Shown here: in pieces, positions 15,399-26,543 of the stretch
Layout of the letters: every line of letters starts with the position of its first letter
Numbering within the stretch: the stretch's first letter is position 1
Assembly (NCBI GenBank): GCA_001792115.1
Contig: MGFX01000001.1
Coordinates: forward strand, 122,694 to 186,693
Source: Candidatus Woesebacteria bacterium RBG_16_42_24
GTDB lineage: Bacteria > Patescibacteriota > Microgenomatia > UBA8517
Length of the DNA stretch: 64,000 nt
Reading direction: 5' to 3'
Notes under the pieces: generated by a model
The model's database searches: none
What the model saw: only the letters and a program-made list of their open reading frames with translations
What the model was told of the DNA's origin: nothing
Position numbers and translations under genes: made by a program

Positions 15399-15650
15399 AT
15401 GTTTGAGGTTTACGCACTTTACAACAAAAAGCACAATAAGATCTATATCGGCCAGACAGCAAATTTAGATCAAAGACTCGAGTTGCATAACAAGGGAATA
15501 TTTAAGAATAGTTTTACGGGTCGTTTCGATGGCGGTTGGGAGTTAATATACGTAGAGCCTCACGACGCTCGCGTCAGTGCATTAAAAAGAGAAAAACAGC
15601 TTAAAAGTTATAGAGGTAGAGAATTTCTTAGAAAGAAATTATTAGCTTAA
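15399..15650 (+). CDS. GIY-YIG nuclease, YhbQ/UPF0213 family (copy 1)
   Basis: ATG at 15399 gives MFEVYALYNKKHNKIYIGQTANLDQRLELHN..., the GIY-(10)-YIG + conserved R...H/N motif; ORF-track start at 15339 is a TTG inside a perfect 18-nt palindrome; stop 2 nt before tRNA-Asn. Confidence 0.7.
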   Translation: MFEVYALYNKKHNKIYIGQTANLDQRLELHNKGIFKNSFTGRFDGGWELIYVEPHDARVSALKREKQLKSYRGREFLRKKLLA

Positions 15651-15651
15651 C

Positions 15652-15723
15652 TCCCCTGTAGCTCAATGGTAGAGCGGCTCGCTGTTAACGAGAAGGTTGT
15701 AGGTTCGAATCCTACCGGGGGAG
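15652..15723 (+). tRNA. tRNA-Asn (GTT)
   Basis: Cloverleaf folds by eye: acceptor TCCCCTG/CGGGGGA, D-arm GCTCAATGGTAGAGC, anticodon loop CTGTTAA, T-arm GTAGGTTCGAATCCTAC. Confidence 0.75.
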
Positions 15724-15773
15724 CTAAGCTAATACTATGATAGGGTCGCAGGTTCGAATCCTTCCGCCGGAGC

Positions 15774-16853
15774 TTAATCTAAATAATCTTGAAGCTTCTT
15801 TCGTCTTGAGGGATGTTTTAATTTTCTTAAAGCTTTTGCCTCGATTTGTCTAATTCTTTCTCGGGTAACTCCAAAAACTCTACCGACCTCTTCCAAGGTC
15901 ATTTGTTTATTGCCCTCTAGGCCAAATCTAAGCTTAAGAACCCTGGCTTCACGATCGGACAAGGTTGAGAGAACTTCATCGAGATGGTCTTTAAGAAGTT
16001 GTTTTGAGGCCTGGTCAATCGGGGAAAGTTCCCGCTCGTCGGGAATAAAATCTCCCAAAATGCTTTCCTGGTCTTCCCCTACGGGAGCTTCCAGAGACGT
16101 TACTTCTTGAGCGATTTTAAATATTTCGCGGACTCGCTCGGCATCCAAGTCCAATTGATCTCCAATCTCCTCCGGAGTCGGTTCGCGCCCAAGCTCCTGC
16201 ATTAGGCGCCTGCTTGTTCTATAGAGCTTATTTATGGTCTCAACCATGTGGACCGGAATTCTTATAGTTCGGGCCTGATCAGCAATTGCCCGGGTTATTG
16301 CCTGGCGTATCCACCAGGTTGCGTAGGTCGAAAACTTGAAACCCTTTCTCCAGTCGTATTTTTCAACCGCGCGAATTAGCCCCTGGTTTCCTTCCTGAAT
16401 AAGGTCGAGGAGCGAAAGTCCCCGGCCAATGTATTTTTTGGCAATAGACACAACCAGTCTTAGATTTGATTCGGTGAGCTTATCTTTGGCCTTTTTTTCT
16501 GCCTTTTCGTATCTTTTGGCAAGCTCAATCTCGTCCTCCGCCGAAAGCAGGGGAACCCTGCCTATTTCTCTTAAATACTGTCTTACAGGGTCGGTCGATT
16601 CTGCTCCACCGAGCTTGGTTAGAATCTCAATTTCTCGATCGAGTTTTTCCTGCTCTTTCTCGCCGCCTTCAGCCTCCTCGGGCGTAACCGACTCAAATAC
16701 ATCCACATTTTCGGTAATGAGTTTTCCATAGAAATCGTCTAGCTCGCCCACTCGAGCCTCGGCATCCGGAAAAACCTCCAATATTTCCTCTTGGGTCAAA
16801 AACCCTTGCTCCCGACCCTTTTTAACCAATAAATCAACCGCCTTTTTATGCAT
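15774..16853 (-). CDS. rpoD: RNA polymerase sigma-70 factor RpoD
   Basis: 359 aa; regions 2-4 clearly present ([48 protein letters not shown]). Confidence 0.9.
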
Positions 16854-18655
16854 TAGGCCTCATGAAGAATTATACCGCTATCTTTGTCGCGTTCAAGACT
16901 CGTACGTTTGACGTTTAGGCGGTTATATTTCGCCTTGATTGCCATAAGTTTCCCCTTTTCTCCTTTACCTTCGAGCTCTTTCATCTGCCTCGTCAACTCC
17001 TCCCGCCTATCCTGATTTTCAAGAAGTTTAAGTCTTACTATTACACCCTTGACTTCCCTTTCAAGAAGTTCGGGTTTTTCGGTGTGAATCTCTTCCTGCC
17101 CAAGTATTACTCCTGCAAATCCGTCGGTTAATTCACTGGGCAAAAGCTTGGAAAAAAGGGTTAGGTCAAACTTGAGGTTCTTCTTAAGAAAACTCGCAAG
17201 CTCATCCAAAATTCTTCTGGCCAAGGGGGTTTTAATCAAAGACAAAATCTCTTTTTCCATTAACCCCTCGGGGTCTTTTTGGAAATATAGAGTCAAAAGC
17301 CGCTCTTCCGTGACCTCGCGAATTCCTTTGCCTTTGTCAACTGCCGGAATCTCGACTTTTGCCTCCTGGCCAACCTCTTTGGTAATAAATACCTCGACTT
17401 CTTTTTCAACTGCCTCTGTGGGAACTTTAAGTTGCTGGGCTACTTTTTCTATATAATGGGCTTGAACAATTTTGTCAGGAATACCGGCAAGAATCGGGGT
17501 AATTTCGCGACTTACTTTTCGCTTTGCCTCCCCGCTATCTCCCCCAAATCGAGAAAAGATAGAATCTATTAGGAAATCCCAAACTCCGACTGCGGCGATT
17601 AGGGCCTTTTTATATTCATTGGGCGCCTTTTGTGCGGCTTCGTCCGGATCCTTAAAATTTCCAAGCCTGGCAACTTTTACCTCAAGCCCTTGGGTTTGGG
17701 CAATGGCAACCCCGCGCCTAACGGCGGCGTCTCCAGCAAAGTCTGTGTCAAGTGCGAGGATTACTTTTTGGCAGAACCGAGTTAATAGCCTTAACTGTTC
17801 TTCTGTAAAAGCCGAGCCTTTGATGGCAACGGTATTCTCTACTCCCGCCTGCCAAGAGGAGATCATATCGAGCTCTCCCTCAACGACAATCGCCGTCTTT
17901 TTTTCCTTAATCCTGGTCTTTGCCAAATTCAATCCATAAAGGACCCTGCTTTTATGATAAATCGGGGTTTCCGGTGAGTTTATATACTTGGCCAACTCTG
18001 TCTTGGCCCCCGGCATTGTCCTTCCTGCAAATCCAACAATATTGCCCCTGTGGTCCAATAAAGGAAAAGTGATTCTTCCCCTAAACCTATCGATGGCCGC
18101 CCTTCCAGGAACACTAAGCCCAGCCTTTTCAAGTTCCCTGTCGGCAAATTTTTTCTTCTCAACCAAAAACTTGCGAATTGCCCCCGGAACATCTGGGGAA
18201 AAACCTACCTGAAAAGTTTCTATTGTTCCCGCTTTCAGGCCCCTCTCACGGGTCAAATAGTTATAAGCCTGCTTCCCTGCAGGGTGGCCCACCAGGATGT
18301 AGTGATAGAAACGGGAGGCAAGATTATTTATCTCATAAAGTCTTTCTTTTTCTCCCTGCTCGCCGGGCCTTAAAGCTACTAGTTTAATTCCGGCGCGATC
18401 TGCTAGAAACCTTAGAGCCTCCCCAAAATCCATCCCTTCGTACTTTTCTAAGAAGGAGAAAGCGTCGCCACTTTCTCCGCAGCCGAAACACTTATAAATC
18501 TGAAGCTCCGGAGAAACCATAAAAGAAGGAGTTTTTTCAGAGTGGAATGGGCAGAGTGCTCTGTAATTTCGTCCGGCTTTTTTGAGCTGAACGTATTCCC
18601 CAATTAGAGAAACTATATCTATCTTTTGTTTAACTTCGTCAACTTGATCAGCCAT
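16853..18655 (-). CDS. dnaG: DNA primase DnaG
   Basis: 600 aa; zinc-ribbon [16 protein letters not shown] and TOPRIM region; classical dnaG-rpoD operon. Confidence 0.9.
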
Positions 18656-25368: not shown

Positions 25369-25786
25369 TAAGCGAGCAAATTATGAATACAAACTCGAGG
25401 GTGATCGGGTTGAAGCCGGAATTTCTCTCTCTGGCGGGGAGGCAAAAGCCATAAGGACTGGACATGCGGATATTAACCAGTCAGTCGCAAGAGTTGTTAA
25501 TGACGAGATTTTCCTGATTAATGCCAACATTCCGATTCCAGAAGCCCAAAAGTATTCATCGACAAGGACAAGAAAGCTCCTTTTACATAGAGATGAAATA
25601 GTTTCATTAACCACAAAAATGAAGCAATTTAAATTGACTTTGGTGCCTACAAACCTATATAATAAGGGCCGCTTAATCAAGGTGACTCTTGCCTTGGGTA
25701 AACCCAAGCGTGAGTTTGAAAAGAAAGAAGCGATTAAGCGAAAAGATATCGAGCGCGAGCTCGAGAAAGAGTTCAAGTTACGTTAA
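25355..25786 (+). CDS. smpB: SsrA-binding protein SmpB
   Basis: 143 aa; canonical SmpB N-terminus (NKRANYEYKLE...GISLSGGE) and basic C-tail. Confidence 0.85.
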   Translation: MKITNKRANYEYKLEGDRVEAGISLSGGEAKAIRTGHADINQSVARVVNDEIFLINANIPIPEAQKYSSTRTRKLLLHRDEIVSLTTKMKQFKLTLVPTNLYNKGRLIKVTLALGKPKREFEKKEAIKRKDIERELEKEFKLR

Positions 25787-25822
25787 TTTCTTTGCCGAAC
25801 TTTCTTTCGCAAAGAAAGTTCG

Positions 25823-26186
25823 AGTAAGGTAATGGGGGCGTAAAGGTTTCGACGGGAAGTTCTTTTAAAAGACAGCAAGCAGACTTTGATTAAAAGTCTC
25901 AAAACATAATCAAAACTTAAGCGTCAATAAATATGATGCTCCAGCGTACGCTTATTTAGCTTAAACTGGTGTCTACTAGCTTGATTCTCGACCGAACTAG
26001 ATAGGCATAAACCAGTCGAGATTGACCAAAAGCTTTCGATTTAAAGTTTTCGGTTAAAAAATAAAAATCTTACTCTAATTCGTCCTGTTGGTTGGTAAGA
26101 ATTAGAGGAAATAAAATAAACCAAATAAGCTTGTAGAAGTCTTTTAGTTGACTTTTCGGACGCGGGTTCAATTCCCGCCGCCTCCA
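25823..26186 (+). ncRNA. ssrA: tmRNA (SsrA)
   Basis: 5' GGGGGCGTAAAGGTTTCGACGGG and 3' tRNA-like end GGACGCGGGTTCAATTCCCGCCGCCTCCA pairing with 5' acceptor; internal tag ORF ending ...YAYLA-TAA; immediately downstream of smpB. Confidence 0.8.
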
Positions 26187-26261
26187 CTCTTCGCTCTGTA
26201 CTAGACGTACAGAGCTACGAAGTGGCAAGCCATACTTTGTTATGATTAAAGCTATAAACTG

Positions 26262-26543
26262 ATGGCGAAGAGTGTCCCGCGAAGTTTTAACGAAGTGGGA
26301 CAAAATATGTACTACGTTTACCTTCTAAAATTAAATAACGGAAATTACTACACAGGCTATTCAGCTAATCTGGAAAAAAGGATAGTGGAACATAAGCGGG
26401 GCAAAATTTTGACTACTAAAAATGCCTTACCCCTAAAACTTGTTTATTATTCTGTTTTCTTTACAAGGAAAAGGGCTCTTGCTTTCGAAAAATATTTAAA
26501 ATCAAGCTCGGGATTTGCTTTCAGGAACAAACGCTTAATCTAA
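26262..26543 (+). CDS. GIY-YIG nuclease, YhbQ/UPF0213 family (copy 4)
   Basis: 93 aa; MYYVYLLKLNNGNYYTGYSANLEKRIVEHKRGK...; directly downstream of tmRNA and its hairpin terminator. Confidence 0.7.
   Translation: MAKSVPRSFNEVGQNMYYVYLLKLNNGNYYTGYSANLEKRIVEHKRGKILTTKNALPLKLVYYSVFFTRKRALAFEKYLKSSSGFAFRNKRLI

Follow-up and report, generated by a model that had tools for sequence, protein, structure and literature searches.

Four minimal GIY-YIG nuclease genes of a Woesebacteria genome as candidate selfish cassettes at tRNA, tmRNA and operon sites

A 64,000-nt stretch of the genome of Candidatus Woesebacteria bacterium RBG_16_42_24 (contig MGFX01000001.1, positions 122,694 to 186,693; hereafter the window, numbered from its first nucleotide) harbours four small GIY-YIG nuclease genes, GIY1 to GIY4. 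Having compared their surroundings with those of homologs in related and distant genomes, we propose that the four genes represent four types (c1 to c4) of miniature selfish nuclease cassette that spread by recombination, a reading to which we assign a probability of roughly 60%. As part of the same proposal, each cassette would consist of one Slx1/UPF0213-type GIY-YIG gene of 80-85 codons plus short terminal sequences that are specific to its type. The cassettes are gained, lost, decayed and exchanged between genomes, and pieces of tRNA genes are found at their borders. Cassettes of the c3 and c4 types are located directly behind the 3′ end of a tRNA or of the transfer-messenger RNA (tmRNA), c1 lies directly before tRNA-Asn together with a duplicated 5′ part of this tRNA, and c2 is inserted between operon genes. 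An original prediction, made from the window sequence, had suggested small selfish or homing-like modules at tRNA and tmRNA flanks. This idea is strengthened by presence/absence patterns, a young GIY3 cassette, a decayed GIY4, tRNA scars, a chimeric tRNA and the 67-81% identity of c2 genes across phyla; its tRNA linkage fails for c2, which lies in operon gaps.

Six-frame open reading frames (ORFs) and Pfam searches revealed four intact single-domain GIY-YIG genes within 11 kb, as had been predicted, each encoding 78-85 amino acids and matching PF01541 above the gathering score (E 1.5e-16 to 5.7e-15; Table 1). A tblastn search across the window returned no fifth copy. All seven stable-RNA genes of the window fall in the same 11 kb (ARAGORN, Rfam). 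About 3% of the window lies within 120 nt of any of these seven tRNA and tmRNA genes, and three of the four GIY copies are found there; by our own estimate, the chance of such clustering is about 1e-4. In agreement with the predicted neighbourhoods, tRNA-Asn begins 1 nt past the c1 stop codon, GIY3 begins 69 nt after tRNA-Ser(gct) and ends with a TGA that provides nt 3-5 of tRNA-Ser(tga), and GIY4 follows tmRNA. The claim that each copy abuts a stable-RNA gene thus holds for c1, c3 and c4 but not for c2, which is placed between a membrane-protein gene and dnaG.

Table 1. Features of the window discussed in the text (DH, double hairpin; TIR, terminal inverted repeat; CM, covariance model; MFE, minimum free energy; z, folding z score)
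Feature	Position	Strand	Remarks
GIY1 (c1 type), 83 aa	15399-15650	+	Pfam E 3.6e-15
GIY2 (c2 type), 85 aa	18732-18989	-	Pfam E 1.5e-16
GIY3 (c3 type), 84 aa	23934-24188	+	Pfam E 3.4e-15
GIY4 (c4 type), 78 aa	26307-26543 (26262 = start of longer ORF)	+	Pfam E 5.7e-15
tRNA-Asn(gtt)	15652-15724	+	ARAGORN, Rfam
tRNA-Ser(gga)	21810-21895		Stable-RNA gene
tRNA-Ser(cga)	22980-23067		Stable-RNA gene
tRNA-Arg	23072-23144		Stable-RNA gene
tRNA-Ser(gct)	23779-23864	+	First gene of the transcription unit containing GIY3
tRNA-Ser(tga)	24184-24273	+	Chimera; first 5 nt carry the GIY3 stop codon
tmRNA	25834-26189	+	Rfam RF00023, 167.6 bits; ARAGORN
Extended -10-like box TGGTATAAT	15326-15334	+	Aligns with sequence upstream of L001 tRNA-Asn
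Orphan tRNA-Asn 5′ fragment	15354-15392	+	Acceptor strand TCCGGCG, D stem GCGC..GAGC; hairpin z -3.6
Displaced 3′ fragment of resident tRNA-Asn	15739-15774	+	Variable region, T arm, acceptor CGCCGGA
Right TIR (ATTGGTGTGGGGGTAAA on minus strand)	18655-18671	-	Ends at dnaG start codon
Internal extra left-type repeat (CCCCCACGCCAAT on minus strand)	18706-18718	-	Hairpin with right TIR, MFE -29.3, z -3.8
Left TIR (TTCACCCCCACACCAAT on minus strand)	18991-19007	-	1 nt before GIY2 ATG
Structured trailer after tRNA-Ser(gga), GIY-less	21737-21809	-	Same trailer as in L024
DH copy 3, from 3′ end of tRNA-Ser(cga)	22901-22985	-	CM 78 bits; probable nudB start directly behind
Promoter-like box TGATATAAT of tRNA-Ser(gct)	Upstream of 23779	+	Promoter region and tRNA also in L001
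DH copy 1	23861-23933	+	CM 67 bits; MFE -27.9, z -6.4
DH copy 2, after tRNA-Ser(tga)	24270-24356	+	CM 85 bits; GIY-less, 68-aa ORF (24368-24574) behind
c4-type structured leader (TCTTCGC...hairpins...GTCCCGCGAAG..CGAAGTGGGAC)	26188-26306	+	MFE -47.2, z -6.95

To compare orthologous sites, we retrieved 22 loci (372 kb) from relatives with DnaG as anchor and 10-kb flanks (loci from other genomes bear the prefix L). These relatives and the gene content agree with an assignment of the genome to the Woesebacteria, Microgenomates. The closest syntenic relative (L001) has a DnaG with 78% and an RpoD with 95% identity and keeps the whole gene order, and none of its four corresponding sites contains a GIY-YIG gene. 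Its tRNA-Ser(gct) and tRNA-Ser(tga) are 1 nt apart, its dnaG leader measures 44 nt, its tRNA-Asn stands directly behind rpoD, and a different 70-aa ORF behind tmRNA takes the place that GIY4 occupies in the window. In L009, L012, L019, L023 and L024 the sites are variably filled. L009 (55% identical to c4) and L012 (best match c3) have a GIY gene at the tmRNA site alone, and L019 has one solely in front of tRNA-Asn, where it is 62% identical to c1 although DnaG reaches merely 40%. The presence of the genes is patchy among relatives, and the kind of site is conserved. This is the outcome that the original prediction had envisaged for mobile genes when it proposed a comparison of orthologous tRNA loci. 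It had also named a pattern that would speak for the opposite, i.e. the same four genes in all relatives together with deeply divergent paralogs; the first part is not seen, whereas the second is, since the four proteins share only 33-45% pairwise identity. Each of them is closer to genes of other genomes than to its paralogs, and at this level of identity they are no recent duplicates; recent duplication within the genome, which the prediction had named as potential support for mobility, was therefore rejected. As a separate observation, a run of N at positions 4030-4150 of L001 is flanked by a duplicated tmRNA 3′ end and probably marks a scaffold gap at a variable site.

A recent exchange becomes apparent when the GIY3 region is compared with L023 and L024, loci from another relative whose flanking genes show 69-81% DNA identity to the window. 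The spacer between tRNA-Ser(gct) and GIY3, a double hairpin (DH) that is described below, is identical to that of L023 at 69 of 69 positions (the same is true for L024), and GIY3 itself is 94.9% identical on the nucleotide level, as opposed to 86% for tRNA-Ser(gct) and 84% for tRNA-Ser(tga). Among conserved residues, identical codons are used at 87% of the positions in GIY3 versus 53-59% in three flanking genes, and the synonymous divergence of GIY3 is about 3.5-fold below that of the flanks. Therefore, the cassette is much younger than the divergence of the two genomes, and the exchanged tract is confined to DH and GIY3. The adjoining tRNA-Ser(tga) gene of the window is of composite nature. 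Whereas nt 30-90 are identical to the resident gene of L023/L024, nt 9-29 are foreign, with at least 11 differences from the mutually agreeing genes of L001, L023 and L024. In L023/L024, the GIY3 stop codon lies inside 36 nt of foreign tRNA-Ser sequence, a 5′ fragment broken off in the anticodon, and the intact resident tRNA begins about 80 nt further on. A chimeric tRNA and a foreign fragment of this kind would be the expected traces of recombination through tRNA homology with co-conversion of flanking markers. Two properties expected of homing endonuclease genes are hence seen here, namely presence and absence at the same intergenic site, and a cassette that is younger than its flanks and accompanied by apparent co-conversion.

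Scars of a similar kind occur at other loci. Copies of tRNA 3′ ends that begin in the T loop are located downstream of the GIY gene in L042, L101, L099, L070 and L073, and in L042 the fragment comes with a second DH, so that a direct repeat of about 110 nt surrounds the GIY gene. Every DH without an intact tRNA still has a T-loop-starting tRNA fragment before it. In L009 and L012, the last 17-18 nt of an intact tmRNA are repeated behind it, and leader and GIY gene come next. In L093, the start codon of a c2-like gene is joined directly to a tRNA that breaks off in the T arm, and the stop codon of this gene is 9 nt from tRNA-Lys. The breakpoints cluster in the T loop and the anticodon loop, most of them in the T loop. 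In many cassettes the stop codon is situated inside the downstream tRNA (24186-24188 in the window; L019, L138, L140, L141, L028, L054 and L067), at nt 8-10 of tRNA-Asn in the c1 type, so that RNase P processing would leave a message without a stop codon.

At the c1 site, the resident tRNA-Asn gene has been taken apart. GIY1 and an intact tRNA-Asn are enclosed by an orphan 5′ fragment and a displaced 3′ fragment, neither of which had been recognised in the original prediction. The 3′ fragment forms a direct repeat (D5) with 81% identity to the 3′ part of tRNA-Asn, and its CGCCGGA is complementary to the TCCGGCG of the orphan 5′ fragment. The T arm of the intact tRNA-Asn differs from that of the displaced fragment, which resembles the tRNA-Asn of L001. 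As both the promoter-like box in front of the fragments and their T arm match L001, we conclude that the resident tRNA-Asn was split by GIY1 plus a second, intact tRNA-Asn. The latter was probably brought in with the cassette and would thus be of foreign origin, and the box would represent the promoter of the resident tRNA-Asn locus, now placed before the orphan fragment and GIY1. In the orphan fragment, a 17-nt palindrome (TCCGCCAGCTGGCGGAG, 15367-15383) stands in place of the D loop. The palindrome CTCCGCCAGCTGGCGGAG reported earlier for copy 1 is real, albeit located at 15366-15383 and not at about 15370-15387.

Homologs of GIY1 are numerous (773 at 60-73% identity) and come from Microgenomates and Parcubacteria lineages across the Candidate Phyla Radiation (CPR). 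The layout of the c1 type, which comprises nt 1-13 of tRNA-Asn, the palindrome, GTAGAGC, a few nt, the ORF and an intact tRNA-Asn, with the last codons of the ORF and its TAG stop contained in the first 10 nt of this tRNA, recurs in L019, L138/L139 (Sungbacteria), L140 (Vogelbacteria) and L141. The same palindrome is found in L019, L138 and L140, variant palindromes occur in L137 and L141, and L137 (Roizmanbacteria) has a nested, degenerate version of the arrangement. The c1 architecture is therefore kept in Woese-, Roizman-, Sung- and Vogelbacteria. With regard to orientation, the tRNA-Asn locus of the window (15326-15774) is inverted relative to rpoD when compared with L001 (12884-12998), and tRNA-Asn is co-oriented with rpoD in six relatives (L001, L002, L011, L016, L018 and L019).

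In three of the four CPR genomes sampled, genes for large serine recombinases (Resolvase, Recombinase, Zn_ribbon_recom) are oriented towards tRNA-Asn directly behind the c1 cassette (L137 1369-1852, L138 1076-1852, L140 1103-1852), and larger elements may likewise use tRNA-Asn as a preferred integration site. Such neighbours would fit a scenario in which the cassettes are passive cargo, either moved by general recombination after DNA uptake or left over from integrase islands, and in which the nuclease has another task, for example in defence, against other elements or in a toxin-like manner. Displaced tRNA 3′ fragments are a classic trace of integrase-mediated insertion in tRNA-targeting islands. 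Footprints of this type, starting in the T or anticodon loop and forming direct repeats, are present in the window (15739-15774) as well as in L042, L101, L099, L070, L009 and L012; moreover, the tmRNA 3′ flank is variable, with another ORF in L001, and the GIY proteins lack a DNA-binding domain. However, no tyrosine or serine recombinase is found among the window ORFs in or beside any of the four cassettes, the units of 320-400 bp keep exact, type-specific ends across phyla, the tract exchanged between the window and L023 comprises nothing but DH and GIY3, and matches to defence families are weak and partial. Taken together, we consider passive transport unlikely.

The c3 type is characterised by the DH. 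A metagenome scan with GIY3 as query yielded 80 loci (62-96% identity), and in most of them the gene begins 69-100 nt 3′ of a same-strand tRNA, the species of which varies. The spacer corresponds to a conserved element of about 80 nt that reaches from the tRNA discriminator base to the GIY start codon. Its first hairpin (H1) starts at the discriminator base, which is G in 46 of the 47 sequences of the leader alignment, and the stem includes the CCA-equivalent positions, with the matched variants CCA/TGG, CAA/TTG and CAG/CTG. A TG linker, the second hairpin (H2, RRRACGT...ACGTYYC) and GCC follow, and the start codon is within about 0-13 nt of this GCC. An analysis of the 47 sequences showed 96.8% of the cells paired and compensatory changes in 22 of 28 pairs, which was matched in 0 of 500 shuffles; when the partners were slid by 1-3 columns, pairing fell to about 45%. 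The DH is directly upstream in 62 of 64 distinct GIY3-like genes with enough upstream sequence, and 52 of these copies abut an intact tRNA, with 12 tRNA species represented. Using a covariance model, we detected about 94 DH copies in the 80 loci and exactly three in the window, as well as none in the 22 related dnaG loci, though the same tRNAs are present there. No Rfam match overlaps 23865-23933, 24274-24356 or 22901-22979 at the gathering score or at E up to 10. As far as the literature was searched, the DH is a previously undescribed conserved structured element. Its linker motif matched 26 contigs of IMG/VR, none of which is a DH by the covariance model, and these are thus chance matches.

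In the window, H1 of DH copy 1 has its first base at discriminator G73 of tRNA-Ser(gct), and 5 nt separate the end of H2 from the GIY3 ATG. The MFE folds of all three copies, which differ substantially in sequence, consist of two adjacent hairpins (z -4.8 to -6.4). The nested ACGT-centred palindromes that had been described around copy 3 owe their appearance to the H1 5′ arm, which resembles the complement of the H2 3′ arm. The element itself is conserved, and the nesting was rejected in favour of two side-by-side hairpins on the basis of MFE folds and covariation. DH copy 3 behind tRNA-Ser(cga) had not been noted before. It bears on the neighbouring nudB gene, for which the mechanical ORF start, TTG at 22965, overlaps the DH and the end of tRNA-Ser(cga) (minus strand, 22903-22965); translation probably begins at the ATG near 22905, directly behind the DH. 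This gene is one of two tandem Nudix-like genes (nudA and nudB, 21907-22965) between tRNA-Ser(gga) and tRNA-Ser(cga), of which relatives have one or two copies. Furthermore, a solitary DH-type hairpin (AAACGTACGAATTT...ATTTTACGTTT) at 8109-8158 is intergenic between two minus-strand ORFs and, given its weak match to the covariance model (22.6 bits, E 0.002), may be an orphan half-element.

Pairs of the G.U type exceed those of the A.C type in the DH (21 vs 7), and the sense strand scores 15-22 bits higher than the antisense strand with the covariance model. Both observations argue for selection on the tRNA-strand transcript, and for this reason an accessory role at the RNA level, akin to the stable-RNA processing that the original prediction had named as an alternative, has to be considered: the DH and the other leaders could be signals that process or stabilise tRNA and tmRNA precursors, and the GIY protein could act on RNAs or R-loops to the benefit of the host. 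It would then be understandable that the DH pairs with the CCA-equivalent positions in a covarying manner and that DH copies precede other ORFs (nudB, ORF68), and a TrmH fusion noted for the prokaryotic Slx1-like domain (PMC1564403) points in the same direction. Yet the closest relative has the same tRNAs without DH and GIY gene, and close relatives can dispense with the genes; in L023, GIY4 has decayed to a pseudogene, the c2 type lacks a stable-RNA neighbour, the cassette is horizontally exchanged, and the GIY-YIG fold is known as a DNA nuclease. On balance, a function of this sort for the host appears distinctly unlikely.

The c2 type is bounded by terminal inverted repeats (TIRs) instead. 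CCCCCACACCAAT is located at 18659-18671, with its complement at 18991-19003 (a 19-nt match at 95%) and a third copy at 18706-18718. The inverted repeats that had been reported around copy 2 are thus real, and TIRs of 17 nt are conserved elsewhere: the same repeat occupies the same position in L129, L142, L144, L146 and L148, with the consensus T(T/C)(T/C)ACCCCCACACCAAT ... ATTGGTGTGGGGGT(G/A)AA, and the internal extra repeat is also present in L129 and L148. Between the left repeat and the ATG there are 0-20 nt, the right repeat is at or over the stop codon, and the start codon of the next host gene is 0-4 nt past the right repeat or within it. In the archaeal locus, L144, both repeats carry a matching change (CCCCCGCACC / GGTGCGGGGG). 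Because the TIRs are conserved across contexts, they can be regarded as the ends of a unit of about 350 bp. An alternative view of CCCCCACACCAAT as a degraded tRNA 3′ end was dropped, as there is no convincing T arm upstream and the sequence recurs as a TIR in operon contexts lacking tRNAs.

We found the c2 gene in six independent contexts, in which it is co-oriented in a tight gap between two genes. Apart from the membrane-protein gene and dnaG of the window, these are two transketolase subunit genes, ABC permease and ATPase genes, sortase and surface-protein genes, two small uncharacterised genes (L129), and a site beside a divergently oriented 23S_rRNA_IVP gene (L148). The TIRs are kept in all six, which stem from CPR, Cloacimonetes, Omnitrophica, Elusimicrobia and a Bathyarchaeia metagenome-assembled genome (MAG). 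In total, 1034 homologs with 67-81% identity to GIY2 were obtained, and the MAGs that contain them carry the labels Moranbacteria, Elusimicrobia, Endomicrobiia, Omnitrophica, Cloacimonetes and Bathyarchaeia, whereas DnaG identity within Woesebacteria amounts to 40-59%. Compared with L001, the c2 insertion of the window has taken the place of about 9 nt immediately before the dnaG start. In L148/L149 (399-665 and downstream of 1100), the c2 cassette adjoining the 23S_rRNA_IVP/bAvd gene is followed by a long (CAGG)n repeat.

The repeats invite comparison with true transposons, in which the GIY-YIG protein would serve as transposase on the c2 TIRs or on the DH, in the way RAYT acts on REP or IS200/IS605 on hairpin ends. 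The 17-nt TIRs bound c2 exactly and have changed in a compensatory manner in both arms in L144; likewise, two of the three DH copies in the window are gene-less and resemble non-autonomous copies, and the solitary half-DH at 8109-8158 could be added to them. Against such a mechanism, no target-site duplication is seen at c2 ends in the comparison of the window with L001 or at the other c2 loci, none of the genomes examined has two near-identical copies (the window contains a single c2 copy, and its DH copies are dissimilar), insertion is restricted to quite particular places, namely tRNA ends and gaps close to start codons, and GIY-YIG enzymes cleave DNA but are not known to join it. We therefore hold transposition to be highly improbable.

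The c2 data also bear on whether the four genes are simply ancient housekeeping paralogs, that is, Slx1-like repair nucleases inherited vertically in a tRNA-rich region and often lost. Their deep divergence, the retention of all catalytic residues, the interpretation of the family as vertical (PMC1564403) and the synteny of rpoD/tRNA-Asn with GIY1 in Woesebacteria and Sungbacteria would be compatible with this explanation. It is, however, difficult to reconcile with the lack of all four genes in L001 and their patchiness in other relatives, with the low synonymous divergence of GIY3, with c2 identities between CPR, Omnitrophica, Elusimicrobia and an archaeal MAG that surpass those of DnaG within Woesebacteria, and with tRNA-fragment scars and chimeric tRNAs. 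Vertical inheritance is largely refuted here and must be deemed very improbable.

At the c4 site, the 119-nt leader between tmRNA and GIY4 shares the motifs ACTTCGCC..., GTGGCAAGCCA and GTCCCGCGAAG...CGAAGTGGGAC with L023, L009 and L094. Since this leader is conserved and structured, it supports the ATG at 26307 (MYYVY...) as the most likely start of GIY4, so that the gene predicted at 26262..26543 exists but its start probably has to be shifted. Orthologs of GIY4 are situated behind tmRNA in L009 and L023, and a GIY3-like gene occupies the same site in L012. In L023 the ortholog is decayed, with a stop after six codons and a DNA identity of merely 63.5% to the window. L024 has a c4-like GIY gene behind tRNA-Ser(gga), after a 71-nt trailer, and the same trailer without a GIY gene in the window marks a fifth site, which is empty here. 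The smpB-tmRNA-GIY4 block is inverted in L023 (2502-3655) relative to both the window (25355-26546) and L001, with breakpoints at the block ends.

With respect to the proteins, an alignment of 34 sequences shows no variation at Y5, Y16, G18, R26, H30 and the catalytic Glu (E62 when numbered as in GIY3). A profile built from the copies matched the UPF0213 structures 1ZG2 (BH0048, NMR; 2.8e-13) and 1YWL (EF2693, NMR; 5.8e-11) in the PDB before Slx1 (1.7e-5) and EndoII (4e-3). An AlphaFold2 model of GIY3 built from 34 sequences (predicted local distance difference test score, pLDDT, 88.6) shows one compact domain with the strand-strand-helix-strand-helix-helix topology of the GIY-YIG fold, and Foldseek aligned it with 1ZG2 and the Slx1 nuclease domain at template modelling (TM) scores of 0.62-0.68 (about 30% identity) and with the I-TevI catalytic domain at 0.51. 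This order of profile and fold matches bears out the YhbQ/UPF0213 label given originally; the Slx1/UPF0213 cluster criteria were those of PMC1564403. The GIY-YIG domain spans residues 1-71 and is of the minimal kind without a C-terminal Asn, and neither Pfam nor NCBIfam indicates a second domain in the four window proteins. The model for group I intron-type endonucleases, TIGR01453, reached 17-23 bits (cut-off 56) over the first 30 residues only, and Rfam gave no group I intron RNA around the GIY genes at E up to 10. Matches to PADLOC defence models (partial, N-terminal, E 1e-4 to 1e-2) and to PHROG were partial and weak, and an identity as anti-phage defence system is thus not supported. According to these models, the window proteins are bare catalytic domains of the Slx1 lineage and predicted nucleases. 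The family is large, with GIY3 alone matching 6346 clusters at 50% identity, nearly all of 76-150 aa.

How could such selfish cassettes be maintained and spread? Consensus scans for promoters and terminators inside the cassettes did not exceed shuffles, and no site was found between tRNA and GIY gene. The cassettes would thus be promoterless guests of existing transcription units, housed at places of low harm and using host promoters. The structured leaders (DH, c4 leader and c2 inverted repeats) might act in the transcript such that the tRNA and neighbouring genes are processed and expressed normally, while also forming the untranslated leader of the nuclease mRNA. In a cassette-free genome, the nuclease would break the DNA in or next to the tRNA gene, and the scars point to the DNA encoding the T loop and the anticodon loop. 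Repair would then copy the cassette, with the conserved tRNA sequence serving as portable homology, which amounts to homing with co-conversion. As to how an 83-aa domain finds its target, our preferred guess is a Slx1-like, structure-specific attack on hairpins of tRNA genes or of the DH.

Several points weigh against this proposal. The nuclease is a single domain of 78-85 aa that is not joined to a DNA-binding domain, in which it differs, to our knowledge, from every characterised GIY-YIG homing endonuclease. Cleavage, target and homing are predictions from sequence. The four window copies are old, judging by their mutual identity, and give no sign of recent movement within the genome. The signature of RNA-level selection on the DH fits a host RNA function equally well, and two of the DH copies in the window (22901-22985 and 24270-24356) do not precede a GIY gene. 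Evidence for a link to phages did not emerge, and a tblastn search with GIY3 against 50,697 phage records gave three weak matches. The comparison genomes are MAGs and metagenome contigs, and phylum labels may reflect misbinning (e.g. 'Brocadiales' for L130). Finally, the prokaryotic Slx1-like family has been described as consisting mostly of vertically inherited repair nucleases, and its lineage is distinct from the one that yielded homing endonucleases (PMC1564403).

A more far-reaching version of the proposal would turn the small size of the protein into its central feature. The cassettes, at about 320-400 bp and with one 83-aa protein, would then be smaller than any autonomous mobile unit seen so far, and the bare Slx1-type nuclease would find its targets by structure rather than by sequence, cutting hairpins of tRNA and tmRNA genes (T arm, anticodon arm) and its own DH in unwound, heavily transcribed DNA. 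The DH joined to a tRNA 3′ end would constitute a new class of element that either marks the DNA cut site or serves as RNA cofactor of the protein, and this new, nuclease-only kind of tRNA-gene targeting would have spread from CPR to other phyla and archaea. As a whole, this combination of assumptions is tentative and rather unlikely.

Further loci illustrate the variability of the cassettes. L051 (2400-3260) contains two cassette types in one tRNA array, in the order tRNA(CAT), hairpin leader, c2-like GIY gene, tRNA-Met, tRNA-Asp, DH and GIY3-like gene. In L086 (3259-3370) and L130 (1753-1850), GIY3-like cassettes of different sources have a common downstream module (GGCTNGCCAGCCGATTT ... CCCGC.AA.CGGG ... 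T-run), which ends in a terminator-like hairpin and may be an optional 3′ part of the cassette. The L130 contig (12.7 kb; GCA_046758865.1, a Planctomycetes MAG labelled Brocadiales) harbours a complete tRNA-Ser(tga)-DH-GIY module at 1312-1752, which reflects either spread beyond CPR or a misbinned contig.

The family of stand-alone Slx1-like GIY-YIG proteins is very large and without assigned function, and its members have so far been treated as vertical repair enzymes. If many of them are exchangeable cassettes, thousands of annotations as 'GIY-YIG nuclease family protein' would have to be reread. Our analysis offers concrete candidates for biochemical substrates, i.e. tRNA-gene DNA, the DH and the 17-nt repeats, and it introduces with the DH a strongly covarying motif that is physically continuous with the tRNA acceptor stem. 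It also documents mosaic evolution of tRNA genes in the form of a chimeric tRNA-Ser and a split tRNA-Asn, and it suggests that minimal selfish genes live in the tRNA operons of small-genome bacteria and have evolved to spare tRNA maturation. Should the nuclease be guided by structure or assisted by RNA, it could become a very small programmable or structure-specific tool.

A literature search of incomplete coverage returned no earlier description of tRNA-linked mini GIY-YIG cassettes, of the DH or of TIR-bounded GIY-YIG units; nevertheless, parallels to several known systems can be drawn. In REP/RAYT and IscB/TnpB systems, a structured non-coding element is likewise coupled to a small nuclease gene, with gene-less copies elsewhere in the genome, and the guide-scaffold-nuclease order of IscB/TnpB has a counterpart in the tRNA 3′ end, a piece of flanking sequence that immediately precedes the structured element on its 5′ side. 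The cassettes encode neither an HUH nor a RuvC enzyme, and what they have in common with these systems is confined to the layout. With integrase islands and prophages the cassettes share the sublocation in T and anticodon loop, the regenerated intact tRNA, the displaced fragment as direct repeat and the use of tmRNA. They differ in that they are integrase-free, in their size of 0.3-0.4 kb versus 5-100 kb, and in the case of c1, where it is the 5′ part of the tRNA that is duplicated and not the 3′ part.

Among CPR bacteria, the nearest parallels are the non-intron GIY-YIG insertions in rRNA genes and the 23S rRNA intervening sequences, where small GIY-YIG ORFs reside in stable-RNA genes without intron features and inverted ends are able to form an excisable stem in the transcript (PMC11270868). 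The c2 cassette that adjoins a 23S_rRNA_IVP gene provides a link to them. The rRNA insertions, which were judged not to spread by homing (PMC11270868), are located within rRNA genes, whereas the cassettes lie at tRNA or tmRNA ends or between ORFs and are exchanged between genomes. Slx1 and the UPF0213 proteins (YhbQ, BH0048, EF2693) are the best matches in sequence and fold and have the same minimal domain. Eukaryotic Slx1 cuts branched and hairpin DNA, which would suit a structure-specific attack on the stem-loops of tRNA genes. In contrast to the known family, regarded as vertical repair enzymes (PMC1564403), the window genes behave as exchangeable cassettes with defined ends, and no Slx4-like partner accompanies them.

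In its genetic setting, SegB of phage T4 comes close to the cassettes. This free-standing GIY-YIG homing endonuclease is encoded among tRNA genes, is missing in related genomes, is passed on along with flanking tRNA markers and recognises a TpsiC stem-loop motif in its site (PMC2330249), which corresponds to the T loop where most cassette breakpoints are found. SegB belongs to the homing endonuclease/UvrC lineage and comprises about 220 aa including a DNA-binding part, whereas the window proteins are Slx1-type domains of 83 aa alone, and homing has been shown for SegB but would have to be assumed for the cassettes. Unlike SegB, the cassettes reside in cellular genomes of CPR and other lineages, fused to tRNA ends with structured leaders or repeats.

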